This document shows positions 1 through 38,956 of a stretch of DNA of 40,986 nt, piece after piece; within the stretch, counting starts at the first letter, position 1; every line of letters starts with the position of its first letter. The notes beneath the pieces were generated by a model. The model saw nothing but the letters and a program-made list of their open reading frames with translations. It was not told the origin of the DNA and did not search any database. The stretch is from Candidatus Methylomirabilis sp. (GTDB lineage: Bacteria; Patescibacteriota; DYJS01), in NCBI GenBank assembly GCA_020723005.1, contig DYJS01000004.1, positions 1 through 40,986 on the forward strand, given 5' to 3'. A program made the position numbers and the translations under genes.

Positions 1-35
1 GTTCCAATCCCTTGCAGGGTTTTGGTATTTCTAAT
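1..35 (-). CRISPR. Single CRISPR direct repeat, probably leader-proximal; array presumably continues beyond the left edge
   Basis: Minus strand reads ATTAGAAATACCAAAACCCTGCAAGGGATTGGAAC: CCCT-GCA-AGGG hairpin and a 3' end ATTGGAAC close to the type III ATTGAAAC handle; 150 bp downstream of cas2. Only one copy is visible, so the boundary is approximate. Confidence 0.8.
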
Positions 36-185
36 AGCACCCAATTTTTTCACTAACCTATCCGTGCGAAAAATCAATTTTTGGATTAAGAAAATTTTTT
101 TGAACAAAAATTCAAAAAATAAATAAATTATAAAATTAAAATTGTTGATTTTTAATGTGCTAATGGATATTGGATTCACTTTTTA
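36..185 (-). promoter_or_regulatory. Putative CRISPR leader
   Basis: AT-rich non-coding stretch between the cas2 stop and the repeat; TATAAT on the minus strand at 127-132. Confidence 0.65.
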
Positions 186-464
186 CTAAATAAATATAAA
201 ATCTTCATCTTGTGCTAAATCTGGATGATTTTCACCAAACTTTTCTATCTTACTTTTACAACTTTCACACAAAAAGTAAATACGAACACTATCAACTGGC
301 TGAATAATTTCTGCAATTTTTTCTTTCATAGATCTTGCCATCAATTCATCCAATTCGCATTCAAAAACACTCTTTTGCACTCTCTCTCCAAAAGATTTCA
401 TAATTTTTGCAATTTTATTTAATCTTTTCGGTGTTTTTATGTCGTATGTTACAACTAGTTTCAT
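186..464 (-). CDS. cas2: CRISPR-associated endonuclease Cas2
   Basis: MKLVVTYDI...RVQKSVFEC...DSVRIY motifs. ATG at 464 preferred over 506, which overlaps cas1 by 38 nt. Confidence 0.95.
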   Translation of the reverse strand: MKLVVTYDIKTPKRLNKIAKIMKSFGERVQKSVFECELDELMARSMKEKIAEIIQPVDSVRIYFLCESCKSKIEKFGENHPDLAQDEDFIFI

Positions 465-468
465 AGTT

Positions 469-1458
469 TTAGAATTTGAACGGAGTATAGGTATTAACTT
501 TTTCATAAATTAAATCTCTTAAATTTCTTTGTTGCTTAATAATTATATCATAAAACGAAACCTGTTTTTCTTGACCTGGATAATCATATTTTTGAGCGAA
601 TTTTGTATGAAATGCTCGTATCAATGATTTTATTGCTTCTCTATTCATCAAAATTCTTCCATCACTCTCTTTTCTAAATTGTTCTGGCAAAACAATACTT
701 CTTGAAACAAGTCCAAGCACCATTCCATCAATAGAATAACGAAACTCTTCCATCATATCATAAACCAAACTTTTCCTTCCAAAATCAATTTTATGAAAAA
801 ATCCTAAAAAAGGATCAAGTCCAACCTGTCTAATTGCTCCACCAACAAGTTGTGCAAGCAGTGTATATCCAAAAGAAAGCATAGAATTTACCTCATCTTT
901 TGGTGGAAATTTATTTCTTCCAGAAAAAGAAAAAACTTCATTTTCAAAAAGTTTTCCAAATCCTTCAAAATATTTTCTACTTGCCAACCCTTCAATTCCT
1001 AAAAGCTCTTCAGGAGATTTTGCAAAATTTACATTATTTTTAATTTTCTCAATTTCATCCAAAATATATTGTAAATTAACACCTTTATTTCTTTGTAAAA
1101 GTTGTAAATTTCTTCTTGAGTTAGCAATTTTTCCAAGAACAATTAATTTTGAAAAATCTAATTTAAAATCTTCATTTAAAAATTTTTTATACTGCTCAAT
1201 TTTCAGATTTGTGTTTTTTCCAGTGATACTATTTATCTCTCCAATATAATCTCCATTTTCACCAAGAAAAAATATATCTCTATCAGTTTTCAAAAATTCT
1301 TTAATGACTGGAGTTGTGATTGTGATATTTCCAAAAACCACCAAATGGCTAACAGTGTTTATTGGATACTTTTTTTGCACAGATTCATTTTCTAAAATAA
1401 TCTCTCCTTCAGAAAATTTTACTACAGAATTTTGTTCAAAAATATAAATTGGAAACAT
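469..1458 (-). CDS. cas1: CRISPR-associated endonuclease Cas1
   Basis: 329 aa with LLGIEG, NSMLSFGY, GLDPFLGFFH and SLVYDMMEEFR motifs. Confidence 0.97.
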   Translation of the reverse strand: MFPIYIFEQNSVVKFSEGEIILENESVQKKYPINTVSHLVVFGNITITTPVIKEFLKTDRDIFFLGENGDYIGEINSITGKNTNLKIEQYKKFLNEDFKLDFSKLIVLGKIANSRRNLQLLQRNKGVNLQYILDEIEKIKNNVNFAKSPEELLGIEGLASRKYFEGFGKLFENEVFSFSGRNKFPPKDEVNSMLSFGYTLLAQLVGGAIRQVGLDPFLGFFHKIDFGRKSLVYDMMEEFRYSIDGMVLGLVSRSIVLPEQFRKESDGRILMNREAIKSLIRAFHTKFAQKYDYPGQEKQVSFYDIIIKQQRNLRDLIYEKVNTYTPFKF

Positions 1459-1461
1459 TTT

Positions 1462-2856
1462 TTAGATTATTAAATTTTCTAAATCTTTATTTAAAATTTT
1501 GTGCCATTGTTTTTTTATTAATTTTTCATTTTGCAAAATCTTTTCTTGTTCTTTTATAAAATTTTCAATTCCACAAAAATCTGCAAAATCGTTTTCTGTC
1601 AATCCCTCCAACCTGTGAGCAACAAAAGATTCATTCCTTTTTTCCATAAGTTCCTTTAATTGTACAAAAAAAGATTTTTCAAATTTATTATTGTTCAAAG
1701 CATAAAATAAACATATTTTTGCAATAGAATTAAATTGTCTATTTTCATCAAATTCACTTCCCAAGATTTCTTTTATCTTAGATTTTACATCGGTAGTAAA
1801 AAATTCTTTTGCCTTTTCTATTAAAAAACCTCTTTCATCAGTCCATTTAAACTTATAGTTTTTTTCTAAATAAAAATTTACAAAATTATCCCATAAATTA
1901 TAAATTCTAGCAACTGCATCTGTAAATCTTCTCTGTTTGAAATAAATTTTTGTTCCAATCCAAAGATGAAAAATTTTGATTTCAGTTTTTTCAAAGTCTT
2001 CCAAGCTTGATAAGAATTTCAATTTCTCTTTTTTAGAATGTAGTTTTTCTTGTAAAATTTTTGCAGATTCTAAATCAAAAAACAAAATCGAATTTACAAA
2101 TTTTAAAACATTCAAAATTGTTTCTTTATTTGTAAACTCTGCATTTGAATCTTCTAAAATTGATATCGCTGAAGAATACTCATATTTTTTAATCAATTTC
2201 AAAATTGCATCTTGAACAAAATATTTTTTAACTGTATTCTCATAATCAATATAAAAAACTTTTCCATCATCACTAATTCTGCAAACCGATAAATTTTTTA
2301 TCCATTTTACAGCATTTAAAAACAAAGCATTGTTTAGTGCAGGAATCCCAGCAGAGATCAAAATTGTTGTTTCTATATTTTTTAAATTGTATCTTCTTAT
2401 TAAACTTTCATAAAATTCAAAAACTTTTTCCTCATCACTTGTATTAAAATTCACCTCTTCTAAAAAAATCTTACTTTTTTCTCCAAAGATTTTTTCTATT
2501 ATTTTACCTTCAAAAATTGTATCTGAATTACGAAAATTATCTCTTGCATCAATCTGATTTGTTGAAACAATTATTATATCAGAAAATTTCTCCTTTAATT
2601 TAGAAATAATTTCCAAATTTAAATTTTCTTTATATTTATCAAAATTTTTAAAAATTATTTCTGTAATTTCTTTAAATTTTTTTTCACTATCCACAATTTC
2701 CCCTGTTCTTAAATCCTCTCTTTGTTCAAAAAATTCAGGATAAAGTTTTTTAAACTCCAATCTATTGTTTTTATTCAAGTTTTTTCCACCTAAATAAAAT
2801 TTAGAAATTGTTAAATCGCTATTTCCAATATTCGCTATTAAAATTTTTTTTTTCAT
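1462..2856 (-). CDS. csm6: CARF-HEPN cOA-activated ribonuclease (Csm6/Csx1-like)
   Basis: N-terminal CARF-like motifs (ILIANIGNSD, STNQ..SDT, SAGIPA), helical middle region, C-terminal HEPN-like RNESFVAH; lies between cas6 and cas1. Confidence 0.8.
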   Translation of the reverse strand: MKKKILIANIGNSDLTISKFYLGGKNLNKNNRLEFKKLYPEFFEQREDLRTGEIVDSEKKFKEITEIIFKNFDKYKENLNLEIISKLKEKFSDIIIVSTNQIDARDNFRNSDTIFEGKIIEKIFGEKSKIFLEEVNFNTSDEEKVFEFYESLIRRYNLKNIETTILISAGIPALNNALFLNAVKWIKNLSVCRISDDGKVFYIDYENTVKKYFVQDAILKLIKKYEYSSAISILEDSNAEFTNKETILNVLKFVNSILFFDLESAKILQEKLHSKKEKLKFLSSLEDFEKTEIKIFHLWIGTKIYFKQRRFTDAVARIYNLWDNFVNFYLEKNYKFKWTDERGFLIEKAKEFFTTDVKSKIKEILGSEFDENRQFNSIAKICLFYALNNNKFEKSFFVQLKELMEKRNESFVAHRLEGLTENDFADFCGIENFIKEQEKILQNEKLIKKQWHKILNKDLENLII

Positions 2857-2860
2857 ATTT

Positions 2861-3625
2861 TTAATTTAATTTTTTAAATTTTACATTTCCAAAACCAAAA
2901 TTTGTTTTATTTCCAACTCCAAAAAAATCGGAAGTTTTTGCAAGAAGTGCAACAAAATTTTTTAATTTAAAATTTTTTTCATCAATATTTCTAAATTCAA
3001 AAATTGATTCACCAACAAAACCTTCAATAGAAAAATTTCTAAACTTTTTCTTTCTCGTTTCAATTTTAGAAGAAATTTGAAAAAGATTTTTATCAATAAA
3101 ATTTTCAAAATCTCTCTTTTTTTCTTCTTCAAATTTAACTAAATTTGTTTTTAAAAATTTTTTCAAAAGGGAGTTAAAAATTCTTTTCTTTTCTGGAATA
3201 GAAATAATTTCATCACCATTTTTAAAGAAAGTTGGAGAAAAAAATTTGAGAGAAAATGAATTTGTTTCTTTCGCTAAATTTTCCAAAAATTCTAAAGTTG
3301 CAAACTGAGCAAAACGATTAGAAAGATGATTTGTAAAAACTTGTAAAATTTTTATCTTCTCTTTTCCAACAAAAATTTCTTTATTGATGAAAGAAGAAAG
3401 GATCTCTCCTAAAAATTCATCTCCAAAAAAACCAAATTTTATAAAAAATTTTTCATCTTCTACAAAAAATGGAGAGATTGAAAAAGGTTTTCTTTGTTCA
3501 TGAATTTGTGAAGAGATTTCTTTTGGTAAAACCTTTAGAAATGCGGAAAAAAATTGATATCCAGAAAATTTTTTGTCGATTTGAAAAACTATATTGTAAA
3601 ACATTTTGTAAAAACTATTTTTCAA
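2861..3625 (-). CDS. cas6: crRNA-processing endoribonuclease Cas6
   Basis: KPFSISP, FFSPTFFK and the C-terminal G-loop GVGNKTNFGFG. Alternative ATG at 3604. Confidence 0.92.
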   Translation of the reverse strand: MKNSFYKMFYNIVFQIDKKFSGYQFFSAFLKVLPKEISSQIHEQRKPFSISPFFVEDEKFFIKFGFFGDEFLGEILSSFINKEIFVGKEKIKILQVFTNHLSNRFAQFATLEFLENLAKETNSFSLKFFSPTFFKNGDEIISIPEKKRIFNSLLKKFLKTNLVKFEEEKKRDFENFIDKNLFQISSKIETRKKKFRNFSIEGFVGESIFEFRNIDEKNFKLKNFVALLAKTSDFFGVGNKTNFGFGNVKFKKLN

Positions 3626-3646
3626 AAATACAAACTCTTATCTTCC

Positions 3647-3679
3647 TTCAAGATGACAAACTTTTTTTATCATCCTGAA
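3647..3679. repeat. Degenerate inverted repeat between csm4 and cas6, resembling the element at 15290
   Basis: TTCAAGATGACAA ... TTATCATCCTGAA imperfect arms that resemble TCAGGATGACAAA. Confidence 0.45.
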
Positions 3680-3718
3680 AAATTTTTTCTCATCCTAAGA
3701 TTAAAAATCTGAAGATTC

Positions 3719-4711
3719 TTAACTTATTTTTGCTTTTAATGTAAAAGCAGTTGCATTTTGAATCACTTTTTCATTTACGGAGATATTTTTCAAAATTTTA
3801 CCAAGATAATTTTTATTTTCATAATTTTCTCTCTCTTTATCGTTTTTAAAATCTAACACACTTCCAGCAGAAAAAAATAAAATTGGTTTTTTAAAAGGAT
3901 TCTGAGAATTAGAAAACTCTTCTCCAAGTTTTCCATATTTCACAAAAGTTTCCCATTTAGAATTCTCCCCAGTTGGATCACTTTTATCTGGAACAAAATT
4001 TGAAAGCGAAACAACAGAATTATAATCTTGTAAATTTTCTAAATCATTAAAACCAGAAAACTCTTCAAATTTTGGATCTTCCAAAACTCCCATTCCAACA
4101 GATTTTTTCTTTCCAAAACCAGACTCAAAAGATTTTTTTAAATTTTCTTCAACTTCATATAATTCAAAATTTTCTTGATCTAAAATTTTTATAAAAAACA
4201 CAATTCTCATATTTTTTACAAAATATCTTGGAGTTGTTGAAAAAAGTTTTTTTCCTTCAACTGCAATTCCACTTTCTCTGCTAATTTCTACCTGAGTTTT
4301 TAAATCTTCTTCAAAAAAATTTGGAATTTCTAATTTTTCAAAACATTCTTTTGCTTCTTCTAATTTTTTAGAAACAAGATACTTAAAAATCTCTAAATTT
4401 ACAAATTTTTTCTTTTTTAACTCTTTTCCGTTTAGCTTATTTTTAATCCTCTCTAATTTCTCTTCATTTTTTTCAAAAGGAATATGTATCATAGGTTTTG
4501 GCAAGAAAATATCATTTTCATTTTCATAAAATCCATTTGAAATTGTAAAAATCGGTTTTTTTTCAAAATCTTGCAAAAATCCTTCTAAATCTTTTTCAGA
4601 TAAATTTCTTGAAAGTTCCCACACAAAATGCCCAAAAATTGTATCACTATAAAAATCTGTAAGAAATCCAGATTTTGGAGAGAAAGATAGTTTATAAATT
4701 TTATTTGTCAT
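3719..4711 (-). CDS. csm4: Type III-A Csm4 (Cas5-group RAMP)
   Basis: SDTIFGHF, FTISNGF, FLPKP, GFGKKKSVGMG and FSAGSV motifs. Confidence 0.92.
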   Translation of the reverse strand: MTNKIYKLSFSPKSGFLTDFYSDTIFGHFVWELSRNLSEKDLEGFLQDFEKKPIFTISNGFYENENDIFLPKPMIHIPFEKNEEKLERIKNKLNGKELKKKKFVNLEIFKYLVSKKLEEAKECFEKLEIPNFFEEDLKTQVEISRESGIAVEGKKLFSTTPRYFVKNMRIVFFIKILDQENFELYEVEENLKKSFESGFGKKKSVGMGVLEDPKFEEFSGFNDLENLQDYNSVVSLSNFVPDKSDPTGENSKWETFVKYGKLGEEFSNSQNPFKKPILFFSAGSVLDFKNDKERENYENKNYLGKILKNISVNEKVIQNATAFTLKAKIS

Positions 4712-5066
4712 TGGAATATTTTAATCCATCTGATTCTAAAATTTCTCCCAAAATTATACCATTTTGTTTTGCTTCTAAAACAGAATTTCTTAAAGATGCA
4801 GGATCTTTTTTTGAAATTATTACATCAGATCCAACAATTTTTAAATTCTTAGGAAGTTTTGTAAAACCAGATTCTGCAATAATCATCTTTCCTCGAACGA
4901 TTTCAAGGTTTGGAAATGAATTTTCTGACATATTTCTATTTCCAGCACAATTCAAATCTCCACCTATTTCTTTTAAATTACTTATTATTGTTGCATTTTT
5001 TTGGTTTTTGTTTTCTTCATCTTTTCTTCTGAAAATTTTAATTAAAAATTGTATAATGTTTTTCAT
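4701..5066 (-). CDS. Hypothetical 121-aa protein with three LRR/L-domain-like repeats inside the csm operon
   Basis: ATG start, co-oriented, 11-nt overlap with the csm4 start; repeats NLKEIGGDLNC / PNLEIVRGKMII / KNLKIVGSDVII; amphipathic basic N-terminus. Confidence 0.75.
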   Translation of the reverse strand: MKNIIQFLIKIFRRKDEENKNQKNATIISNLKEIGGDLNCAGNRNMSENSFPNLEIVRGKMIIAESGFTKLPKNLKIVGSDVIISKKDPASLRNSVLEAKQNGIILGEILESDGLKYSNDK

Positions 5067-5095
5067 ATTTAATAATTTAATCTTTTAAATCAATT

Positions 5096-6019
5096 TTAAT
5101 TTATTTTAACTTTACACCAACCTAAATGATTTTTATTTTCATCTATAAATGCTGTATGAACATTTTGATTTGAATCATTTCTCGATCTTGGAGATTGTGC
5201 ATCTGTAAATATTTTAAAATAACTTGTTCCACCAAATCCTAAATTTAATATAAATTCATCTTTTTTTAAATTTTGTAAATTAGTTTCAATTTTTTTTAAA
5301 GATTGATAAAAATGATTTTCAAAAACATTAAACCTATTTAATTTTAAAAAATTCTCTAATCCTTTTTTAGCTTTTTCTAACTCTTTACGATAATAATTTT
5401 TAGATTTTTCATTCAAATATAAAATTTGGTTTGAGATATCGTTTAAAACTTCAACTTCAAAAGACTCTCCTACTTTCAGATTTATTGCATAAACATCAAT
5501 CCATTGATTGTTTCTTTTTCCTCTATTTAAAATTTCCACATTCATTTGACCTGCTTTTAAAAAACTATCTCTCATAATTATTTTTGAAAAAGCAGGGTTG
5601 TCGCTAGAGCTTCTTTTCTCTAAAATAGTCAAAAGTGCACCTTTCACACTACTTGCAGGAATATAAAAATTGCCATTTTGATTTGGAAACTCTTTTACTT
5701 CTAAATTGCCATTCAAATTTAGATTATTATATTTTCTCAAAAACATTTCTGAAACAGATATTTTAAAATCAGAAACATCGTCTAAATTTAAATTTTTGTT
5801 TCCAAAAAATTTGAAAAAATAATTTTGAATAGCTCTTACACTTTGATTTTTTCCAATTTCAAAATAACTATATTTTTTTAAAATTTTTTTATGATTTAAT
5901 CTAAAAAATTGATTTTCTTTTTCTGTAACAATGTAATCAATTCCAAAAACAAGTTTATTTCCTGTAGAGATATGAATTGGTGTCAAAGTTTCAAATTGTA
6001 AAATAATTTTATTTTTCAT
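5096..6019 (-). CDS. csm5: Type III-A Csm5 (Cas7-group RAMP)
   Basis: TLTPIHISTG, YIPASSVKGAL, LGFGG and terminal LGWCKV; ATGA overlap with csm3. Confidence 0.88.
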   Translation of the reverse strand: MKNKIILQFETLTPIHISTGNKLVFGIDYIVTEKENQFFRLNHKKILKKYSYFEIGKNQSVRAIQNYFFKFFGNKNLNLDDVSDFKISVSEMFLRKYNNLNLNGNLEVKEFPNQNGNFYIPASSVKGALLTILEKRSSSDNPAFSKIIMRDSFLKAGQMNVEILNRGKRNNQWIDVYAINLKVGESFEVEVLNDISNQILYLNEKSKNYYRKELEKAKKGLENFLKLNRFNVFENHFYQSLKKIETNLQNLKKDEFILNLGFGGTSYFKIFTDAQSPRSRNDSNQNVHTAFIDENKNHLGWCKVKIN

Positions 6020-6630
6020 TTTTTCTCAACTAATTCCAAAATTTCAACTGCACCATATCCACGACTTCCAGAACCTCCTAAATAATCATTTTTCAAAAGC
6101 TCAAAACCTTCTTTTATCAATTTTAGGCTTTTCTCCAAATCATCATCGGTTTCTCCTCGCAAAATTATCTCTATTTCAAATTGGACATCTTTCGGAACTC
6201 TTTCAATAAATCTTGGACCAGCTCCACTTGCTGTGCCAGTTAATCTATCGATACTAACCTCTGCTTTAATTTCATTTTCAATTTCTTCATTTTCATATTT
6301 TTTCTTCCATTCTTCTGTTAGATGTGCATCTCTGAAAATCACTTTTGTATATTTTTTGTTTTCGTTCTCTGTTTTATCTCCACCAGAACCAAAAACTTCA
6401 GCAACCTCTCCGGTTTTTGAAGGGTTACCATTTTTGAAAAGATTTTTTTCTATTTCTAAAAGCGATCTAATTTTTCCTTTCAAACTACTTCCAGGAATAT
6501 ATGGAAGTTTTGAAATTGGATCTTTTACAACATAGCTATCAATTCCTCCGATTTTAAACTGATCGTTTCCTGATCCAATATGAAGACCGGTTTTAACGAT
6601 TAAAATTATTTTATAAATTTTTCTTTTCAT
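6016..6630 (-). CDS. csm3: Type III-A Csm3 (Cas7 backbone RNase)
   Basis: TGLHIGSG, IGGIDS (catalytic Asp retained), PYIPGSSLKGKIRSLLE and YLGGSGSRGYG. Confidence 0.97.
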   Translation of the reverse strand: MKRKIYKIILIVKTGLHIGSGNDQFKIGGIDSYVVKDPISKLPYIPGSSLKGKIRSLLEIEKNLFKNGNPSKTGEVAEVFGSGGDKTENENKKYTKVIFRDAHLTEEWKKKYENEEIENEIKAEVSIDRLTGTASGAGPRFIERVPKDVQFEIEIILRGETDDDLEKSLKLIKEGFELLKNDYLGGSGSRGYGAVEILELVEKK

Positions 6631-6639
6631 AGTTTTAAT

Positions 6640-7266
6640 TTAATCTCTTTTATATTTTGAAAAATAACCAACCAAAGAAAGCATATGCTGATAAAACATC
6701 TCTAAATTTTTTGAGAAATTTTCATCTTGAGATTTGGTAATTATATCAATTCTGTTTCTAAAAATTTCCTTAAATTCCTCTGAAGCTTCTTTTGAGTATT
6801 CAGAAAGAGCAAGAAGAATAAATAACTTCTGTTTAGCAGTTTCTATATTTCCATTTTTTCGAAAATTTTCATAAATTTTAACTATTTCATCATAAAATTT
6901 CCTAAGTTGATTATTTTTCATTCCAGATTTTGCAAGAATGCTTGCTAAATTATCAACATTTCCATAACCATCTGGAGATATAAGCCATTCAAAAATACCT
7001 TCTTCGTCAAAAAAACTATCGATTAAAAAATCTTTCATTTCAAAAAATATTTTTGTAATTAGTCTGTCTCCAAAATTTCTAGGAAAATTAAATCTTTTTT
7101 CTTTTAAATTTTCTTCTGATTCTAAAAGAATTTTAAATTTTCTATATTGACCATAAATTTCTGAAACATCTATTATATTACCTAATTTTTGAAAATATTC
7201 ACAAATATTAAATTTTTGTAAATTTCTATCAATTCTTTCTAATATAATTTTATATTTATATTTCAT
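6640..7266 (-). CDS. csm2: Csm2 small subunit with an extra N-terminal RRM-like domain
   Basis: C-terminal ~130 aa has NQLRKFYDEI and a terminal SLVGYF motif; start overlaps the cas10 stop (ATGA); 208 aa is longer than typical Csm2. Confidence 0.85.
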   Translation of the reverse strand: MKYKYKIILERIDRNLQKFNICEYFQKLGNIIDVSEIYGQYRKFKILLESEENLKEKRFNFPRNFGDRLITKIFFEMKDFLIDSFFDEEGIFEWLISPDGYGNVDNLASILAKSGMKNNQLRKFYDEIVKIYENFRKNGNIETAKQKLFILLALSEYSKEASEEFKEIFRNRIDIITKSQDENFSKNLEMFYQHMLSLVGYFSKYKRD

Positions 7267-9896
7267 TTTCTTAAATTTAATATTACAAATTTTAAAAGCG
7301 ATAAAATATAATTATCTACAAAATTTTTTGATGAGATATCGGTTAATTGATTGCAAAAATCAAAAACTTCTTTTTGCAAAGAATCCTTTAATTCCCCTTG
7401 TCTGTTTTTAAACTCCCTTTCAATTTTGTAAGTTAAAATTGGGTGCCAAATCATTTTTCTAGAGTCTTTTTTCTTTCCTTTCTCTTCAGATTCTTTTTTT
7501 AAAATCATTAAATCATGCAAATCCCGTAGTATTCCAGAACTCATTTTTGGTTTATTTTCCAAATTTTTATCATAATTTTTTCTCCATACAATTACATTAT
7601 TAGCTTCTTTTATAAAATCCCCCACTTCCTCATTTTTTATCACATCACCAAACAAAAATATACTTGCCTTATTTTTGGATTTATGAAAAAAATTAGAATT
7701 TTCTTTTAAGTTTGAAATATCTAATTTATCTTTCTTTGATTCTTTTTGATTTTTTTCCGAACTTTCTGCAACAAATTTTATTGGTGTAGAATGTTTAAAT
7801 GGTGTCGCACTCCAAGAGATGTGAATTTCTGGATTATTGCAAACAAATTTTTCAAATTCTTTATTCAAGTCATCAATCAAATTTAAAAAAGTTTTAGTTT
7901 CATCCTTTTCTCCGTTTCTATCATTTTTAATTTCGTCATTATTTACAAAAAATGGAGAAATCAAAAACAGATCATCTCCACCTGCATAAATTGTGTAAGT
8001 TTTTGGATAATTTTCTTTTAGCCAAAAATTTAGATACTCTGAAAAGAAAGTTTTTAAAAGATCTGACATCTGAGTGATTCGAGAAAGTGTAAAAAGATCT
8101 CTATTTTGAAAATCTTGAGATTTTTCATTTATTGTCCCAGAACTATAATATTCTTTGTTGTCTTGAATCAATGTTTTTTCATTTTGAGACAAAAGATCTG
8201 TTTTTTCATCAACTCTTAATCCTTCTGCAAAAAGTAATCCCAAATTATCAATATCTCCACGAATAGCGATTAAAGGTTTTTCTTCTGCCAATTTTTCAAA
8301 ATCAACAACTTCGTTTAATCCTTCTTTTGTTGTTAAAACATAATTTGCAACATTCAAAAACCTTGTATTTTGCAATTTTTTAATCTCTTCTCCTTCGCTG
8401 TTCTCATTTTTTCTTCCATCTTTTGCCTTTTCAAAAATTTTTTCACGATCTGGATTTATTAAAAGTCTTCTAAAGTTTTCTTTTTTTAAAAAAGAGATCT
8501 CAATTTTTTCATCAAATGAATAAAAAATTTCAAATTCATCTCTTACCATTTTTTCACCAAGGGAAATTTCTAAAAAACAATTTTCACAAATTTTCTTCTC
8601 TCCATTTTCCTCTTGAAGAGTTTTTGATAATTTCTTTGGTTTTTTACAGATTGGACATTTTATATTTTCAAAATCTTCAATATTTTTTTCAAATTCAAAA
8701 TTTCCAACAAAAACATCTTGCCAAGAATTTTCATCCTTTATTAAACTTTCAAATTGATTATTTCTTTCGTCTTGCAAATTTTCTGAAATTGATTCAAAAA
8801 TATCAAAAATATTTTCTTCGTCATCTTTTCCAGAAAAAGCATTTAATCCAAAATCTCTTGAATTCCAAATTGCAAAACGAAGTTCATAAAAATGTTTTTC
8901 TTTCAAAAAAAATTCAACTTTTTTTTTGATGTTTTTAATTAAATTATCAAAATTTTTTAAATCTGGAACAAGAATATAAAATTTCCCACCAGCTTGCATT
9001 AAAAGATTAGCTTCCGTCAAGCCAAATTCATGCAACACAACATCAGAAAAAATTTTCCCATAAATTTGAACCAAAGTACTTCTAGAGCGAAGTCTTTTTG
9101 CAACTTTCTCTCCTTCAATATCTGTAATAAATTTTTGAATTCCTAAAAAATCTCCAACTATAATTTTAAATTTAGTACATTCAATTTTTCTTTCTTTATC
9201 TTCCAATTTCCATTTATAAATACAATGAGAAATTGCAGAAACATCTTTAGAGTGTGTAAAAAGAGAGATATCAGTTTTTTCATTTCCTGTAAAATCTGGA
9301 ATGCTCCAAGTGTAAGTTTTTAAAACTTCTAACAAAAAAGAAATGATATCTTCAAAATTTGTGAAAGTAGAAATTGATTCTAAAGATTTTAACAATTCTT
9401 CAAAAGAAAAATAATGAGTTTGTAAAATGTTATTTTTTTCTTTTGGAATAATTTTTGAAATTTCAAATTTTGATTGATCAAAAAATTTGGTTTCTAATTC
9501 ACTTTGAAAATCTGGATGAATTTTTGTTTTTGAAAAAATTGAAGCCAAAAATCTATGAGAAAAATCTTTAAATTTCCCGTTCTCTGTTTCAACATATTGC
9601 AAATCTTCTCTTTCTGATGCATTTCCATGATCTGCAATCTTTATAATTTGAGTAAAAAGATCTAAATTTTTTTCTTTTGAGTGATGATTTTTAATTATTT
9701 CTAAAAATTTCGAAAAGTTTTCTTCTTTATCTTTATCTTCTAAAATTTTTTTAAAAGTTTCTTTTAAAGAATTTACAAAATCAACTCCAAAATCTGAGTG
9801 AGATTTTTGTTTCGTTTTCTCTGCTCGTTGTTTAAATTTTCCAATATCATGAAAAAGTGATCCAAGAATCAAAATTTTTTCATTAATATTCAACAA
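7263..9896 (-). CDS. cas10: Cas10/Csm1 with HD nuclease and Palm cyclase domains
   Basis: LFHDIGK (HD), GDFLGIQKFI, CPIC/CENC zinc finger, RGDIDNLG and YAGGDDL; TTG start. Confidence 0.97.
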   Translation of the reverse strand: MLNINEKILILGSLFHDIGKFKQRAEKTKQKSHSDFGVDFVNSLKETFKKILEDKDKEENFSKFLEIIKNHHSKEKNLDLFTQIIKIADHGNASEREDLQYVETENGKFKDFSHRFLASIFSKTKIHPDFQSELETKFFDQSKFEISKIIPKEKNNILQTHYFSFEELLKSLESISTFTNFEDIISFLLEVLKTYTWSIPDFTGNEKTDISLFTHSKDVSAISHCIYKWKLEDKERKIECTKFKIIVGDFLGIQKFITDIEGEKVAKRLRSRSTLVQIYGKIFSDVVLHEFGLTEANLLMQAGGKFYILVPDLKNFDNLIKNIKKKVEFFLKEKHFYELRFAIWNSRDFGLNAFSGKDDEENIFDIFESISENLQDERNNQFESLIKDENSWQDVFVGNFEFEKNIEDFENIKCPICKKPKKLSKTLQEENGEKKICENCFLEISLGEKMVRDEFEIFYSFDEKIEISFLKKENFRRLLINPDREKIFEKAKDGRKNENSEGEEIKKLQNTRFLNVANYVLTTKEGLNEVVDFEKLAEEKPLIAIRGDIDNLGLLFAEGLRVDEKTDLLSQNEKTLIQDNKEYYSSGTINEKSQDFQNRDLFTLSRITQMSDLLKTFFSEYLNFWLKENYPKTYTIYAGGDDLFLISPFFVNNDEIKNDRNGEKDETKTFLNLIDDLNKEFEKFVCNNPEIHISWSATPFKHSTPIKFVAESSEKNQKESKKDKLDISNLKENSNFFHKSKNKASIFLFGDVIKNEEVGDFIKEANNVIVWRKNYDKNLENKPKMSSGILRDLHDLMILKKESEEKGKKKDSRKMIWHPILTYKIEREFKNRQGELKDSLQKEVFDFCNQLTDISSKNFVDNYILSLLKFVILNLRK

Positions 9897-10219: not shown

Positions 10220-10480
10220 CTATTTTTCTAATTTTAATGCAAATTTATGAATGATGTTCCAAATTTCAACAATAAACTCTTCTGGTAAATCTAAACCTTT
10301 TCCCAAAGAAATTTTTGAATCCAAAACCTCTTTCCACCTTTTTTCATCAAGAGGTGGAAGATTTCTCTCTTTTTTAAATTTTCCAACTTTCAAAACAACC
10401 CTCATTCTTTCTGCCAAAAGTGAAATTATTGCAGAATCAATGAGATCAATTGATTTTCTAAAATCTTGCAAATCGTTCAT
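10220..10480 (-). CDS. Chorismate mutase type II (AroQ-like), standalone
   Basis: LQDFRKSIDLIDSAIISLLAERM..VGKFK...D.KR pattern. Confidence 0.9.
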   Translation of the reverse strand: MNDLQDFRKSIDLIDSAIISLLAERMRVVLKVGKFKKERNLPPLDEKRWKEVLDSKISLGKGLDLPEEFIVEIWNIIHKFALKLEK

Positions 10481-16557: not shown

Positions 16558-19098
16558 CTACTTTTCTTGACCAATCCTCATTCTCTCTTCAATTTCCATC
16601 TCAACCAATTCACGAGGACGACCATATTTTAATTTTGAAAGTTCTTTGATTAGTTGTCCTAATTTTTCATTTCTTGGAGCACGAATCGGCACAGTTTCCA
16701 TTGAAAAAGGCTCTCCATTCTGTCCATCAATCATCAAACGAACAAAAGCATTTCTATTTGGAAGTTGTGAAATATCATTTTTATCAAAAACTTTTGGAAA
16801 AAGTTTTTCAAGTGCTTCAGAATCTTCAATTCCTGTTCTAAAAACACAGACTGTTCCAACATTTCCAAGCACAGCATCTTTAACTTTTTCTGGAAGTTGT
16901 TTGACATACTGATGTCCCATCGTAAGAGAAAGTTTATACTTTCTTGCTTCAGACAAAATCTCTGCAAAACTATCATTTGCAAAATTTTGAAACTCATCTG
17001 CATATAAAAACATTGGGATTCTTGCTTCTTGTCCCATTTTTGCTCTTTGAAATGCTGCTGCTTTTAATTTTGAAACAATAATTTGACCAAGAAGAGAAGA
17101 GTTAAAAACTCCTATTTTTCCTTTTGAAAGGTTACAAATTAAAATTTTTCCATTTTGCATAACATCCATAAAATCAAAACTACTCTTGCTTTGTCCAATA
17201 ATATTTCTCATCTGTGGAGCTGTGATGAAACGACCAAATTTTGAAATTATGTATGAAAGTCTTTCACCTTTAGAATTCCCAGAAGAGTTTTTCATTTCAA
17301 CAAAAAAATAATCACGAACAGAAAAATTTTTTGATTTCTTTGCAATTGCCTCTGCGAATTTTTCATCTGCTTGCATTCTTGGCATCTCAACCAAAGTTCT
17401 TGTCGTGGATTCATCATCCATTAAAGCAAGCATACAATTACGAACAGAATGCTCAAAAATTGGTCCCATAGTTTCTGCATCAAAAAGTTGAAACAAAATA
17501 TTCACAAATTCCTGAGTTAACATATCTTTTTCATCATCATCGTGTGGTTCCATAATGTTTAGACCCATTGGACGAGAAAAATCACCGGGATCAAAATATA
17601 TCACATCTTCTGCCCTCTCTTTTGGAATATAATTTAAAATATCTTCTGCATCTTCTCCGTGTGGATCAAGAAAACAAACTCCGTTTCCTTGCAAAATATC
17701 AGAGATTATCATCTGCTTTTGAAAATAAGTTTTTCCAACACCAGTTTGTCCAATAATATATATATGACGAAAACGATCTTCTTGTTTAATTCTAACATCT
17801 TTTTTTACTCCACGAAAATTTGTAACACCCATCAATGTTCCTTCTGTTGGAAGATTTGGAGGAGCTTGAGCTTTTTTAGAAGGAAGCCAACGAATATCTG
17901 GAACTGTGCAATATTTGTTTGGTAAATGAAAAATTGTCGAAATCTCTTCAGTATTTAAAATACTTCTATCTTCCAAGTTTGTTCCAAGAACTGGAAATTT
18001 TCTTAAAACAAAATCTGTAATCAATTTCGGAGAAGAAGATCTTCGTTTTTTAAATTTATTAAATTCTGGATGTTCAAATTGTGTAAAAACTCCAATCACA
18101 TTTTCTAATCTATGTTTTGCATTTTCTTTGCTTTCACTAACAATTGCAATTCTGATAATTGAATCAAAACCAAGTTTTGTTGTTTTCTCTGCAATCGCCT
18201 TAATTCTTTCTTGATCCATAGGAGTAATCTCTCTTTTTTCTTGTTTTTCTTCTTGTTCTTTCTGAGATCTTTTTTGTTCATTTCTTTGTGCTTGTTCTGG
18301 ACTAACACTATCACCAAAAGAACTAAAAATTTCAGACAATCCATCAGCAACTCCTTTCATAACCTTTTGACCAAAAGTATCTTTTTTCTCTTCTCCTTTT
18401 TGAATTGATTTGATTTTTGCTTTTGCTTGATTTCTCCACTCTTCACTAGAAACTGGCTGAATCAAAATCTGAATCACCCCAGCTTCTGTTCCTTTCATTT
18501 TACTAATTGCAGTTGTTATTGAATTTAAAGGATCATAATCTAAAGTTTTGTAAGTTTTAATTGGAAGCAAGCTATTTTTCTCTGTCACAAGCTCAGCACA
18601 TTCAACAAATCCTTCAGAATCAAAAATTTTATGATCTTCTAAAATCTCTTCAATTGATGCATCAGACCAAACAGAATGAATCTGTCTCTCTAAAAAAGTT
18701 CTATATTTCCTTTGAATTGCAAAATAAAAATATATCTGTTCGTTTTGAGAAACAATCTCCATAGAAAGGGACGGAACCGATTTGCCCATAAATTTTTCAA
18801 ACCAACCAAATTTTTTATACATACTCCAAACATTCGCAAAAAAAGGTTCAACACCACCAAGCATAGTTTTTAAATCTAATCTTTTTTCCTCTTCATTGAT
18901 CACCTCTCTTGGAACTTTAATTCTCAAAATTGAAAGATTTAACGAAGATTCAATGTCTTGTTTTCCAGTTTGAATATTTTTGAAAATTGAAATTCCAAAA
19001 AAAATAATCAAGAAAAAAAGAATGGCAGATAATGTAACATCAATTACATTAAGTTTTAAAATTCCAATAGACCAAAATGTTGTAAAAAATATATTCAT
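16558..19098 (-). CDS. VirD4/TraD/HerA-like (DUF87) membrane-anchored ATPase
   Basis: N-terminal TM; DRFRHIYIIGQTGVGKT (Walker A), LDPHGE, LYADEFQNF (Walker B), LSEARKY and AVLGNVGT. Confidence 0.88.
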   Translation of the reverse strand: MNIFFTTFWSIGILKLNVIDVTLSAILFFLIIFFGISIFKNIQTGKQDIESSLNLSILRIKVPREVINEEEKRLDLKTMLGGVEPFFANVWSMYKKFGWFEKFMGKSVPSLSMEIVSQNEQIYFYFAIQRKYRTFLERQIHSVWSDASIEEILEDHKIFDSEGFVECAELVTEKNSLLPIKTYKTLDYDPLNSITTAISKMKGTEAGVIQILIQPVSSEEWRNQAKAKIKSIQKGEEKKDTFGQKVMKGVADGLSEIFSSFGDSVSPEQAQRNEQKRSQKEQEEKQEKREITPMDQERIKAIAEKTTKLGFDSIIRIAIVSESKENAKHRLENVIGVFTQFEHPEFNKFKKRRSSSPKLITDFVLRKFPVLGTNLEDRSILNTEEISTIFHLPNKYCTVPDIRWLPSKKAQAPPNLPTEGTLMGVTNFRGVKKDVRIKQEDRFRHIYIIGQTGVGKTYFQKQMIISDILQGNGVCFLDPHGEDAEDILNYIPKERAEDVIYFDPGDFSRPMGLNIMEPHDDDEKDMLTQEFVNILFQLFDAETMGPIFEHSVRNCMLALMDDESTTRTLVEMPRMQADEKFAEAIAKKSKNFSVRDYFFVEMKNSSGNSKGERLSYIISKFGRFITAPQMRNIIGQSKSSFDFMDVMQNGKILICNLSKGKIGVFNSSLLGQIIVSKLKAAAFQRAKMGQEARIPMFLYADEFQNFANDSFAEILSEARKYKLSLTMGHQYVKQLPEKVKDAVLGNVGTVCVFRTGIEDSEALEKLFPKVFDKNDISQLPNRNAFVRLMIDGQNGEPFSMETVPIRAPRNEKLGQLIKELSKLKYGRPRELVEMEIEERMRIGQEK

Positions 19099-30793: not shown

Positions 30794-31222
30794 ATGGCAA
30801 AAAAAATTAAGACAAAAATTAAACTTCAAATTCAAGCAGGAAAAGCAAACCCTGCACCACCAGTTGGACCAGCACTTGGACAACATGGTCTTCAAATTAT
30901 GGATTTTTGTAACAAATTTAATACTGTAACAAAAGAGAAAGGAGACACAATTTTACCTGTTGTAATCACTGTTTATGAAGATAAAACTTATGATTTTATT
31001 GTAAAAGCTCCTCCAGCATCCGAACTCCTTAAAAAGGCTTCGGGAATCTCTAAAGGTTCTGAAAAACCAAATAAAGAGAAGATTGGGAAAATCACAAAAT
31101 CTAAACTTGAAGAAATCACAAAAGTAAAAATGCCAGATTTAAATGCATATGATCTAGAAAGTGGAATGAAAATTATTGCTGGAACTGCAAAGCAGATGGG
31201 AATAGAAATTATTGAAGGATAA
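30794..31222 (+). CDS. rplK: 50S ribosomal protein L11
   Basis: [30 protein letters not shown] and IAGTAKQMG. Confidence 0.98.
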
Positions 31223-31232
31223 ATTTTTGAAA

Positions 31233-32414
31233 ATGAAAAATTTTAAATTAAAAAACTTTTTTCTTGTATTTTTACTATCTGCAATTTCTCTCTCTGCTTG
31301 CGAACTTAAAAAAAAGAACAATAGCACAACATCTTCTAAGAATAGCAATTCAACAAACAAAAACACAAAAGATGCCGAAACTAAAAAAGAAGATATTGTA
31401 ATAAACATAGAAAACTCTGTTTTTTCAAATTCTTTTTTTTATTCTAACACAGGTAAGGAAAGCGAATCTTCTAAAGTTGAGCCATTAACAAAAATTAAGT
31501 CTGAAATTAAAAAACAAGCCACTGATATAAAAAGTGAAAAATTAGCCTTTAGCTTCAGTTACAATCCATACTATCCAAAAATTTTTATTTTAGTTGGAGA
31601 TTCATCTCAATTTAACAATTTTCAACCATATCAAAAGATATTTATCTCTGATATTGATGGAAAAAATGTGAAGATGATTTATTCTCTTAAGCAAAATGAT
31701 GAGAATAAAGAAAACTATATTTCAGGATTTACATTTTCTAGTGATGGAAAAAGTGAAGCAGGATGGATTGAACAAGACAGATCGAGAGAAGATTTTCCAA
31801 CGAGAATAAAAGTTGTAAACCTTCAGGAACTTTTTAATGATTCAAAATCAGTTTCCTTTAATGAGTTTGAGCTGGATTCTGATTTTGGATTTTTCTCAAA
31901 TTTTTTAGCTATTCAAGAAGATAAATTTATTTTCAAATCTGATAAGATAGCCGGAGAGAAATATGGAGATTCTATTTTAAATTATGCTTTAAGAACATCA
32001 AATGTTCTTAAACCAAAACCATATCTATTTATTAAAGATGCTATTGAAACCTTAAAAATAAAAGATTCATCAGTTGAAATAGGACATCTTTTTTCAAGCA
32101 TAAAATCGTCTTCAAAAAATACTATATTCTTTTCTCTTATCACAAATTCTAAGTCAGAAACATCTTCTCATATCATTCAACAAGATGAACCGGGAAACTT
32201 TAGGATTATAAAAACTTTTAAAGAGAAAAATTTTGTTTGTCAGCCACAAATATCAATAAGAAGCAAAATTCCTTGCATTCAATTAGATTTTGATTCTGAA
32301 ACAGATTCATCAACACTTGTTCAACTTGATGTTTCAACAGGAAAAATTTTAGAAATAGCAAAAGATAAAAAAGTTTCTGAATTAGGATTTAACCCTATTT
32401 GGTGGGAAGTTTAA
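31233..32414 (+). CDS. Putative lipoprotein (possible beta-propeller/TolB-like)
   Basis: From ATG 31233: basic n-region, hydrophobic core, LSAC lipobox and S/N/T linker; FSSDGK-type motifs. Confidence 0.75.
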   Translation: MKNFKLKNFFLVFLLSAISLSACELKKKNNSTTSSKNSNSTNKNTKDAETKKEDIVINIENSVFSNSFFYSNTGKESESSKVEPLTKIKSEIKKQATDIKSEKLAFSFSYNPYYPKIFILVGDSSQFNNFQPYQKIFISDIDGKNVKMIYSLKQNDENKENYISGFTFSSDGKSEAGWIEQDRSREDFPTRIKVVNLQELFNDSKSVSFNEFELDSDFGFFSNFLAIQEDKFIFKSDKIAGEKYGDSILNYALRTSNVLKPKPYLFIKDAIETLKIKDSSVEIGHLFSSIKSSSKNTIFFSLITNSKSETSSHIIQQDEPGNFRIIKTFKEKNFVCQPQISIRSKIPCIQLDFDSETDSSTLVQLDVSTGKILEIAKDKKVSELGFNPIWWEV

Positions 32415-33739
32415 AACCTTTAAAAAATAGTAATTTAATTATATTAATTATTTTTCTTTTATTTTTTTCTATTGCTCTTCTACTTGATAACCAAAAAAAA
32501 GAAAAAATAATTTCTGAAATCTCTAAAAAGATATCGATTGAAAGAAAGAAAAATGATAATTTGGAGATGAAAATTTTAGATTTTGAATCTAAAAAAAACA
32601 TTACTACGGATAAAAAATTAGAAAATTTAAACGAAACTGAGTTTCAGAAATCATTATCAGAAATCTTTGAAAATGTTAAAATTTTAAGAAAACTTGATGG
32701 TGAAATTCCAAAAAATATCTCCAAAAAAAGCAAAGAGGAGATAAAAGACTTTGTAAAGTCAGATCTTTTGTCAAAAAAATCTTCGATAGATTCTAAAAAT
32801 TCTTTATATAAAATTTTATTTTTAGTTCCAAAAGATTTTTCATATTTTGATATACTAGTTCAAACATTTCAAGAACAAGTAGCTGGATTTTATAATTCTA
32901 CAAATAAATCTTTGGTTGTTGTTTCAGAAAACGAAAAATACAAAACACCAACGATCTCTGATGCAGAAACATATATTTTATCACATGAATTTATTCATGT
33001 TTTACAAGATCAAAATTTTGGACTAGATAATGTTTTAAACAATTTTTCTGATGATTCTTTAATTGCCAGAACAGCTTTGGTTGAAGGTGATGCAACATAT
33101 TTTATGAATTTATATAAAGATAAATTTAATTTAAAAATTATAAATTCCTCTTCCGAACTTGTTTCGTCCAAAAACTTAGAAAAAGCTCCATTTGTTGTTT
33201 GGCAAGATATCGTTTTTCCATACACAGAAGGATACGATTTTGTTTCTAAAGTTATATCTCAAAAAGGAGATCTTTTTATCAATGATTTATACAAAAACCC
33301 TCCATCTTCTACTGAGCAAATAATTCATCCAGAAAAATACTTTTCAAGAGAAATTGGAGAAGATATCGTTTTTAATTTAAACTCTATTTTTTCAGAAAAA
33401 GAGTGGATAGAAACAGATTCTTTTACAGGAGGAGAACTTTTTTTTAGAACATTTTTTAGAACTCATATTGGAGATAATTTTGATTATTGTTCTGAAGGTT
33501 GGAATGGTGATAAAATATACTTCTTTCAATCTTACGAAAATTCAAATTTTAAAAAAGTTATTTTTCTAAATAAATTTGATTCAGAAAAAGATAAAATTGA
33601 ATTTCTTGATTGCTTAAACTCTGTTAGATCTAAAAATTTAAATTTTTGTTCAACAACATGCTCAATAAATCAAACTAGAGTATCATACAAAAAGCTAGAA
33701 AACGATACAATTTTAACTGAATTTTACTCAAAAACATAA
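32399..33739 (+). CDS. Membrane-anchored zincin-like metallopeptidase
   Basis: N-terminal TM; VAGFY, LSHEFIHVLQDQNF (HExxH), ALVEGDA, FPY.EG and PPSSTEQIIHPEKY. Confidence 0.8.
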   Translation: MVGSLKPLKNSNLIILIIFLLFFSIALLLDNQKKEKIISEISKKISIERKKNDNLEMKILDFESKKNITTDKKLENLNETEFQKSLSEIFENVKILRKLDGEIPKNISKKSKEEIKDFVKSDLLSKKSSIDSKNSLYKILFLVPKDFSYFDILVQTFQEQVAGFYNSTNKSLVVVSENEKYKTPTISDAETYILSHEFIHVLQDQNFGLDNVLNNFSDDSLIARTALVEGDATYFMNLYKDKFNLKIINSSSELVSSKNLEKAPFVVWQDIVFPYTEGYDFVSKVISQKGDLFINDLYKNPPSSTEQIIHPEKYFSREIGEDIVFNLNSIFSEKEWIETDSFTGGELFFRTFFRTHIGDNFDYCSEGWNGDKIYFFQSYENSNFKKVIFLNKFDSEKDKIEFLDCLNSVRSKNLNFCSTTCSINQTRVSYKKLENDTILTEFYSKT

Positions 33740-38263: not shown

Positions 38264-38956
38264 TTAACATTTATATTTCAAAATGTCTGTTTGAATACTT
38301 TTTTTTAAATCATCAATAAATTTATCAAAAGTTTTTACCTTTTCGCTTTCTTCAATTTTCAATTCTGACAAAACATAACTTCCATCAATGTCTGTTTCGA
38401 CGATTGCTCTTCCTTTTTTTGCTGGAATTTTTGTTTTTAAAGTTCCATCTTCGTCTAGGGTGATAAAATAAACTTTTATATGATTTGTTGCTTCATCAGA
38501 TAATAGCTTAAACTTCCAATATCCAGTTTGTGCAATTCGTTCTCGAAGTGTTACTTTACTAGACAAAACAGCAATTACTTCACTATTTTTTGGATTATAA
38601 ATTATCATATCAACATCTGGAAGATGAGAGCCAAATTCACCATAATCAACCAAAAGATTTCTCTTAACCAAACTCAATTCTTTCGATAAATTATTTGATG
38701 ACGATCTTTCCAAACTATTTCCATTTATAATTTCTAAACCTATTGAATGAATTTCGTCTGCAATTATGTATTCAATTAGTTTTTCTAAATTTTTTCCTTT
38801 AAAAGATCTCCAAGATTGCTCATGATCTTTTCCAATAAAATCTTTTTGATGTTGTTTTTTTACATCTTTTAAAACACTAGAAATATATCGATAGGTTTTC
38901 GAACCAAATTTTTTCTTTTTATTTTCATAAATTTTAATTAAATCTTTTATGTTCAT
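38264..38956 (-). CDS. Type II restriction endonuclease (BsaWI/CCGG-family-like PD-(D/E)XK)
   Basis: QSWRSFKGKNLE, PDVD and SSKVTLRERIAQ (R-(D/E)-R motif); 4-nt overlap with the MTase. Confidence 0.8.
   Translation of the reverse strand: MNIKDLIKIYENKKKKFGSKTYRYISSVLKDVKKQHQKDFIGKDHEQSWRSFKGKNLEKLIEYIIADEIHSIGLEIINGNSLERSSSNNLSKELSLVKRNLLVDYGEFGSHLPDVDMIIYNPKNSEVIAVLSSKVTLRERIAQTGYWKFKLLSDEATNHIKVYFITLDEDGTLKTKIPAKKGRAIVETDIDGSYVLSELKIEESEKVKTFDKFIDDLKKSIQTDILKYKC

Follow-up and report, generated by a model that had tools for sequence, protein, structure and literature searches.

A Complete and Probably Functional Type III-A CRISPR-Cas Locus in a CPR Bacterium, with a Clade-Type Gene Order and Two Private Additions

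Introduction

Does the beginning of a contig from a small bacterial genome carry an ordinary CRISPR-Cas system of type III-A, or do its unusual gene order and its two extra parts make it a sub-variant of its own? The question is raised by ten genes located at positions 186-9896, on the minus strand, of the stretch analysed here (the window), which comprises the first 40,986 bases of the 55,411-base contig DYJS01000004.1 (assembly GCA_020723005.1, Candidatus Methylomirabilis sp., Patescibacteriota in the GTDB lineage). An earlier note on this DNA had read the genes as a complete III-A variant of a bacterium of the candidate phyla radiation (CPR), working through cyclic oligoadenylate (cOA) signalling and differing from the known systems in its order, in an RRM-like (RNA recognition motif) part of Csm2 and in an additional gene, orfX. 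The analysis described below retains the complete III-A system in a CPR-like host; on the other hand, the order is not peculiar to this locus, the view of orfX as the mark of a sub-variant is not supported, and III-A systems are not new to CPR bacteria. The locus is probably a complete and functional chromosomal type III-A system of a CPR bacterium, and it likely works by the standard pathway, with orfX as a passenger.

Gene Content and Catalytic Motifs

The ten open reading frames (ORFs) follow each other in the order cas10-csm2-csm3-csm5-orfX-csm4-cas6-csm6-cas1-cas2, and all of them are intact and tightly packed. Family calls were made using Pfam, NCBIfam and PADLOC, which agree with each other (Table 1); together with the ORFs and their translations, they confirm that each gene is found in the place and order originally claimed. 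Cas10 contains an HD domain, a zinc finger and two Palm domains, with Pfam matches to HD, Csm1_B and palm2; its TIGR02578 score, as well as the HD and GGDD motifs, identify it as a III-A-type protein. The csm2 ORF (6640-7266) codes for 208 aa, and the Csm2 domain match is confined to residues ~105-206; the assignment to Csm2, rather than to Cmr5, is based on PF03750 (39 bits against 24.8), TIGR01870 (38 bits against 30.6) and six PADLOC Csm2 models. The NCBIfam scores of Csm3, Csm4 and Csm5 all exceed their cut-offs, in agreement with their membership in the respective RAMP families, and for Csm4 146 homologues were retrieved at E<=1e-10. The true start of Cas2 may be M15, since the domain begins at residue 15.

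The catalytic residues listed in the earlier note, namely HD, GGDD, the Csm3 aspartate and the R..H pair of HEPN, are all present and intact. The HD (H16/D17) and GGDD (G639-D642) motifs of Cas10 align in register with those of Lactococcus lactis Cas10 (chain 6xn3_A). Csm3 D31 pairs with D36 of the GGID motif in the T. onnurineus Csm3 chain 6iqw_C, a residue which we take to be catalytic. In Csm6, residues R407, N408, S410, A413 and H414 are invariant in an alignment of five sequences, comprising this protein and four CARF-HEPN proteins from related loci. The claim of a complete III-A module thus holds, with intact catalytic motifs and a probable CARF-HEPN effector, and cOA signalling would therefore be the expected mode of action of the locus.

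The pathway can be outlined as follows, each step being one that we infer from family membership and intact motifs, after the established III-A mechanism. Cas6 would cut the precursor of the CRISPR RNA (crRNA) at the repeat hairpin, leaving the 8-nt tag AUUGGAAC, and Cas10-Csm4, the Csm3 backbone, Csm2 and the Csm5 cap would assemble on the mature crRNA. Binding of a complementary transcript would lead to its cleavage by Csm3 (D31) and to the activation of Cas10, whose HD domain would cut single-stranded DNA, with the GGDD Palm domain producing cOA; the latter would bind to the CARF domain of Csm6 and switch on its HEPN RNase (R407/H414). New spacers would be added by Cas1-Cas2.

Table 1. Features of the type III-A locus in the window, listed in the direction of transcription.
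Feature	Position	Strand	Basis or remark
cas10/csm1 (877 aa)	7263..9896	-	TIGR02578 385 bits vs cut-off 170; PADLOC Cas10 305 bits
csm2, N-terminal extension (residues 1-101)	6964..7266	-	private to genome; possibly ferredoxin/RRM-like fold
csm2, Cas11 helical domain at the C-terminus (residues ~102-208)	6640..6963	-	PF03750; TIGR01870; AlphaFold2 pLDDT 84-97 over 111-200
csm3 (Cas7 backbone RNase, D31)	6016..6630	-	TIGR02582 203 bits; aligned to solved Csm3 chains
csm5 (RAMP), ahead of csm4	5096..6019	-	TIGR01899 66.5 bits vs cut-off 38.3; PADLOC Csm5 models
orfX (121 aa), small leucine-rich-repeat/receptor-L-domain-like	4701..5066	-	marginal PF01030 match, 23.0 bits vs 21.8
csm4 (Cas5-type RAMP, Cas10 partner)	3719..4711	-	TIGR01903 112 bits; PADLOC PDLC01494 207 bits
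cas6 (crRNA-processing endoribonuclease)	2861..3625	-	PF10040 48 bits; PADLOC Cas6 64, Cas6_IIIa 62 bits
probable csm6/csx1-type CARF-6H-HEPN effector (464 aa), divergent	1462..2856	-	PADLOC Csx1/CARF-HEPN PDLC01509 97 bits over residues 4-428
cas1	469..1458	-	PF01867 267 bits; TIGR00287 275 bits
cas2 (106-aa ORF)	186..506	-	PF09827 86 bits; TIGR01573 68 bits
AT-rich leader (~149 nt), cas2 stop to first repeat	37..185	-	sequence
36-nt leader-proximal CRISPR repeat with the 3' end ATTGGAAC	1..36	-	ends at contig edge

Order of the csm Genes

The canonical order of III-A operons is csm3-csm4-csm5, and the T. maritima locus tags in the names of the NCBIfam models (TM1811, TM1810, TM1809 and TM1807) imply the same. 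In the window csm5 precedes csm4, which had been regarded as a rearrangement special to this locus. Other CPR loci were read by tblastn using the ten window proteins, combined with ORF tables: the order cas10-csm2-csm3-csm5-csm4 was found in two of the four with a readable order (genomes G126 and G117, loci L014 and L016), G282 has csm3-csm4-csm5, and the locus of G048 ends at a contig edge, so that its order is not readable.

Outside the CPR, a scan of GTDB species genomes by Csm4 alignment yielded 121 relatives, 80 of which were kept; 16 of these 80 loci, chosen non-randomly, with long flanks and a spread of taxa as the basis, were read by hand using ORF tables and NCBIfam. The order csm3-csm5-csm4 is present in six (L021, L022, L023, L029, L040 and L068), all from metagenome-assembled genomes (MAGs) of Ignavibacteria/Melioribacteraceae, and their Csm4 proteins, with 33-41% identity, are nearer to that of the window than any others found. 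Two loci, from a Brevinematales genome and a Sulfurospirillum MAG, have csm3-csm4-csm5. In the remaining eight (L026, L027, L030, L032, L041, L043, L049 and L064) csm3-csm4 is directly followed by a CARF protein, either TIGR02710 or Csm6-like; Csm5 was not detected by NCBIfam among the downstream ORFs of these eight, the region upstream of cas10 being outside the scan.

The csm5-before-csm4 order is therefore a clade trait, common to Ignavibacteria-type loci, and not a private rearrangement; it would have been inherited from a III-A clade shared with them. Thus, the order is common among related loci, whereas both additions proved to be private. Nothing relevant to a csm5-csm4 order or to a Csm2 extension was found in the literature searched, whose coverage leaves out most subscription journals.

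The orfX Gene

The product of orfX is a real, conserved, small protein with similarity to leucine-rich-repeat (LRR) and L-domain proteins. It has homologues at 57-65% identity, and an exhaustive HMMER search identified 50 clusters at E<=1e-3, about twenty of which are standalone proteins of 80-113 aa, the remaining ones being repeat matches within large LRR/L-domain-like proteins. Members of the family comprise three LRR-like repeats followed by a C-terminal helix, and only two prolines are invariant in a 19-member alignment; the window protein carries in addition a private 29-residue N-terminal helix, which is absent from its homologues. The AlphaFold2 model is confident (mean predicted local distance difference test, pLDDT, of 84, with a core above 90). 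None of the matches that Foldseek gave in PDB and BFVD was at E<=0.001; at the top were EGFR domain III (E 0.06, template modelling (TM) score ~0.5) and a phage LRR protein (E 0.013).

In the operon orfX stands between csm5 and csm4, and the earlier note had proposed it as the mark of an undescribed sub-variant. This proposal is not sustained. In all eight loci having the csm5-csm4 order, csm5 either abuts or overlaps csm4 and no gene separates the two; orfX is absent from all 20 other III-A loci examined, including, by tblastn, the four CPR loci. A search of 400 further genomes from the phylum yielded no copy, and the scan of species genomes returned no relatives among its 57 pattern matches. 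In addition, the two homologues with a known context, both from metagenome loci, have no cas genes within reach: one is on a 190-kb contig with 37% GC, among small unknown genes and near a T9SS-tailed (type IX secretion system) protein, a C5 methylase and a STAND-like ATPase, and the other is beside a methyltransferase on a 2-kb contig. Since no other III-A locus has orfX and its homologues are located outside cas loci, it looks like a lineage-private insertion; most likely, it is an old insertion, co-transcribed with the operon as a passenger.

As regards the surroundings of the closest homologue (L018:9549-12050), it is found among overlapping small genes (145, 96 and 123 aa, the third of them membrane-like), which are followed by a 445-aa protein; the C5 DNA methylase and the STAND/AAA ATPase are a few kb away. 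Genes for 100-aa antitoxin-like proteins, BrnA-like and YefM-like, occur directly 3' of csm4 in two Ignavibacteria-type loci (L027:10575-10877 and L022:9971-10273); therefore, small unrelated genes do enter these operons.

A phage origin of orfX was also considered, and it was not borne out despite the Uroviricota labels carried by look-alike clusters of the ESM Atlas. A tblastn search of 50,697 GenBank phage records gave no match, of three IMG/VR scans one retrieved 2 relatives (36% identity over 67 aa) and the others none, and six members of the family had no match among PHROGs. A complex prediction for Csm4, Csm5 and orfX, run with no controls, scored 0.00, which is evidence neither way.

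N-Terminal Extension of Csm2

The csm2 ORF overlaps the end of cas10 by 4 nt, and 101 residues precede the Cas11 helical bundle. By a rough estimate, a non-coding stop-free run of such length is unlikely in AT-rich DNA. When residues 1-100 were used as the query in a word-seeded HMMER search covering 5.8 billion sequences, the protein itself was the only match, and no Pfam family was matched by the extension, the RRM family PF00076 included; the Csm2 of the sister genome G025 (150 aa) aligns only to residues 82-205 and lacks it. As judged from these data, the ~100-aa extension is real and private to this genome.

Structural models provide a hint on its fold. AlphaFold2 predicts the bundle with confidence, with a pLDDT below 50 over residues 1-101. 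The ESM Atlas has its own model of this Csm2 (pLDDT 0.82), and the structures nearest to residues 1-93 of that model are mostly RRM domains, with TM scores of 0.55-0.66 normalised by the query: six of the ten neighbours are aligned to an RRM Pfam family and a seventh is an RRM-domain cluster; among the ten there are an ACT domain and three unnamed clusters. The RRM-like appearance may thus be taken as a fair lead, rather than an established case, for what is possibly a ferredoxin-type fold.

Long Csm2 proteins with unrelated N-terminal parts recur in related loci. In CPR genome G117 (L016:5235-5855) Csm2 has 206 aa, and its N-terminal part, unrelated to the extension in the window, contains a CxxC..CxxC pattern that appears zinc-ribbon-like by eye. 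Csm2 proteins of 193-216 aa are found at L026:7759-8346, L027:7703-8353 and L030:7760-8341, from Ignavibacteria/Bacteroidetes MAGs, and have in common a conserved N-terminal domain of ~100 aa with the motif EGKITKV..RGFFFID.DYWC, which gave no Pfam match. In these three loci a CARF gene follows csm4 and Csm5 was not detected among the ORFs scanned; they could represent a form of III-A without Csm5, in which the Csm2 fusion compensates. A cold-shock-like nature of this Ignavibacteria domain was considered and dropped, as it relied only on the look of GFFFID, with no Pfam match.

The recurrence of such parts at L016, L026, L027 and L030 suggests that the N-terminus of Csm2 is a position that tolerates or exploits extra domains, and this bears on a different reading of the two additions, in which orfX, and perhaps the Csm2 extension as well, would be a working part of the Csm complex and the locus a true III-A sub-variant. 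The orfX product would be a small LRR-type adaptor (regulator, tether or sensor), translationally coupled to Csm4, which modulates the complex by binding to one of the Csm subunits or to a protein of the host or of a phage; the N-terminal domain of Csm2 would perhaps be an extra RNA-binding module on the Cas11 filament. Besides the recurrent Csm2 fusions, this reading is consistent with the conservation of orfX and its confidently predicted fold, with its embedding in the operon, where it overlaps the start of csm4 and its GC content is ameliorated, and with its private N-terminal helix. Yet none of the 20 other III-A loci has orfX, neither of the two homologues with known context is beside cas genes, the two invariant prolines do not suggest an active site, and the Csm2 of G025 has no extension; a working role for the additions is accordingly unlikely. 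If true, it would change the regulation or the sensing of the complex, and it would fit the pattern seen in the clade, with the Csm2 N-terminus as a hotspot for appended domains.

Repeat, Leader and Sister Locus

A leader and a single 36-nt repeat lie beyond cas2, at the very edge of the contig. No second copy of the repeat is present in the 25-contig assembly, the remainder of the array not being assembled. In the sister genome G025 an array of three full repeats and one truncated copy is found 3' of cas2, with ~160 nt between cas2 and the first repeat; these repeats agree with the one in the window at the 3' end (ATTGGAAC) and over much of the 5' half, and a common small hairpin is formed by both, its stem differing by a compensatory change (CCCU/AGGG versus CCUU/AAGG). 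In Logan, the probable source run, a biofilm metagenome, contains pieces of 31-38 letters over window positions 1-36 at depths of 330, 235 and 112, compared with ~10 in nearby bins; this run is not independent and the depths are summed over organisms, so that the support it lends is weak. Judging from the G025 array, the shared hairpin and, to a lesser extent, the Logan depths, the 36-nt element is a genuine CRISPR repeat. Of the leader-repeat unit originally described, therefore, a genuine repeat following a leader stands, although one repeat does not make an array on its own. A promoter-like match at 155-127 is a match to the consensus only, as the scan for promoters and terminators is uninformative in this AT-rich window, with 64 sites found and 60.5 expected.

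Cas1 and Cas2 are 57% and 64% identical, respectively, to their G025 counterparts, and in G025 (L013, G025:C10:7000-16618) cas1 and cas2 are intact, with the array 3' of them, and cas6 is inverted upstream.

Several observations weigh against the proposal of a functional III-A system in which orfX is a passenger. The rest of the G025 locus is decayed: cas10 is interrupted by two TAG stops in frame, csm5 has been reduced to a fragment of 70 aa, no csm4 is present and csm6 is shortened to 341 aa; because of this decay, selection on the locus may be weak in the lineage. The assembly contains no spacers, hence no sign of targeting or of recent acquisition. The effector is divergent, as Csm6 scores 49.5 bits with TIGR02672, against a cut-off of 150, and its Pfam HEPN and 6H matches are below the cut-offs; a sequence search of the PDB with Csm6 gave no match. 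The position of orfX, 29 nt past csm5, with an 11-nt overlap with the start of csm4 and the same GC content as its neighbours, fits an old, retained and co-expressed gene as well as a neutral passenger. Finally, the gene orders outside the CPR come from the non-random set of 16 loci.

The first of these points could be taken further, and the window locus be viewed as an intact-looking but decaying relic, with an array that is silent or lost, on the same path as G025. Chen et al. propose restriction-modification as an alternative defence where the III-A loci of Roizmanbacteria are degenerate (PMC6509639); a BsaWI-like restriction-modification pair is likewise present on this contig, and no array is assembled here. 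However, all ten ORFs are open in a region of 25% GC, where stop codons are frequent, all the catalytic motifs are kept, and the Logan records of the source reads make the repeat look multi-copy. On this evidence decay of the window locus is quite unlikely, and a functional system is still the preferred explanation.

Host Genome and Genomic Setting

The assembly comprises 749,279 bases in 25 contigs, with a GC content of ~27%, and is 91.5% complete and 0.1% contaminated. A search for ribosomal protein L30 (PF00327) found it in 13 of 14 control genomes and not in the host; at its usual place S5 is directly followed by L15, the two ORFs being 1 nt apart, and both L1 and L9 are present in the genome. 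The absence of L30 is, as reported by Brown et al. (2015), a signature of the CPR. Most of the 400 other genomes drawn from the same phylum are about 0.7-1.2 Mb in size at near-full completeness, and the sample as a whole spans ~0.7-2 Mb. The small genome, the missing L30 with the S5-L15 adjacency, and the placement among genomes of ~1 Mb bear out the view of the host as a member of the Patescibacteria/CPR, which had been advanced as probable. Its class and its order each consist of two species genomes, the host (G000) and G025, and both contain Cas10.

These data are also relevant to the source of the locus, which would say nothing on CPR bacteria if the contig were mis-binned or if the genes had been transferred very recently from Ignavibacteria/Bacteroidota. 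The best Csm4 matches (36-41% identity) are indeed in Ignavibacteria and Bacteroidetes MAGs, and the closest orfX homologue is located on the 37% GC contig with the T9SS-tailed protein mentioned above. Against such an origin, the 55-kb contig carries core genes for translation and transcription (NusA, RpoD, DnaG, L11, ProRS, SufB and six tRNAs) with the same GC content as the cas genes, contamination is minimal, and the one further genome in the class, G025, contains a related locus and a similar repeat; moreover, the identities with Ignavibacteria are only ~40%, and therefore any transfer is old. A mis-binned contig or a very recent transfer is thus highly improbable.

Type III systems are rare in this phylum, in agreement with the initial statement that CRISPR-Cas is uncommon in Patescibacteria: the Cas10 query gave a match at E <= 1e-5 in only five of the 400 other genomes. 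Nevertheless, a III-A system in a CPR bacterium is no novelty. Type III-A systems have been reported in hot-spring Roizmanbacteria, where some of the loci are degenerate and stand beside restriction-modification systems (PMC6509639), and in oral Gracilibacteria (PMC10746230). The occurrence of III-A in the CPR was thus already known, and the gene order is shared with relatives; the orfX insertion and the Csm2 extension are private to this genome.

Other genes of the window deserve mention. Directly upstream of cas10, a lone type II chorismate mutase of 86 aa is encoded at 10220-10480 (-), an oddity, since the synthesis of aromatic amino acids would be expected to be absent from this genome. 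An 846-aa ATPase at 16558-19098 (-) has HerA/DUF87 and TraG-D_C matches and resembles VirB4/coupling proteins. In the region 30794-33739 (+), rplK, coding for L11, is followed not by rplA but by a pair of ORFs (400 and 446 aa) that match no Pfam family; L1 is encoded on another contig (G000:C23:61703-62275). Lastly, a BsaWI-like type II restriction endonuclease (PF18643) adjoins an N6/N4 DNA methylase at 38264-40233 (-), and this restriction-modification pair represents a second defence system on the contig.

Comparison with Known Systems

An intact multi-subunit system in a class of two genomes adds a data point on defence in ultra-small episymbionts. The csm5-before-csm4 order is a trait shared within the clade, in which Csm2 repeatedly gains N-terminal domains; the understanding of III-A systems is otherwise unchanged, unless orfX or the Csm2 extension proves functional.

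Compared with the III-A complexes of solved structure (L. lactis 6xn3; S. thermophilus 6ifn and 6nud; T. onnurineus 6iqw and 6mur; S. epidermidis 7uzw), the window locus encodes the same set of subunits, namely Cas10 with HD and GGDD, Csm2, Csm3, Csm4 and Csm5, together with Cas6, Cas1-Cas2 and a probable CARF-HEPN Csm6. It differs from them in that csm5 precedes csm4, with a 121-aa LRR-like gene between the two, in that Csm2 has 208 aa and an extra N-terminal domain of ~100 aa, and in that Cas10 is ~120 aa longer; in addition, Csm6 is too divergent to be matched by sequence in the PDB. The family of small standalone LRR/L-domain-like proteins (~80-113 aa) has the same three LRR-like repeats and C-terminal helix as orfX, which is the only member seen in a cas operon and the one that carries an extra N-terminal helix.

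The Ignavibacteria/Melioribacteraceae loci (L021, L022, L023, L029, L040 and L068) have the same cas10-csm2-csm3-csm5-csm4 order. Unlike the window, they have no orfX, their Csm2 proteins are of 138-161 aa and lack the extension, and TIGR02221/DxTHG, Csx3, Card1-like proteins and ring nucleases are found downstream in place of cas6-csm6.

Within its own host group, the locus is of the same subtype as the systems described for Roizmanbacteria (PMC6509639) and Gracilibacteria (PMC10746230). The same holds for the CPR loci of G126, G117, G282 and G025, none of which has orfX; these are the four with a readable order, and their Cas10 proteins are only 23-35% identical to that of the window. Among them, G117 alone resembles the window in the length of its Csm2, with its unrelated N-terminal part, and the arrangement in G126 is cas10-csm2-csm3-csm5-csm4-csm6-cas6-cas1-cas2, in which csm5 precedes csm4 as it does in the window.

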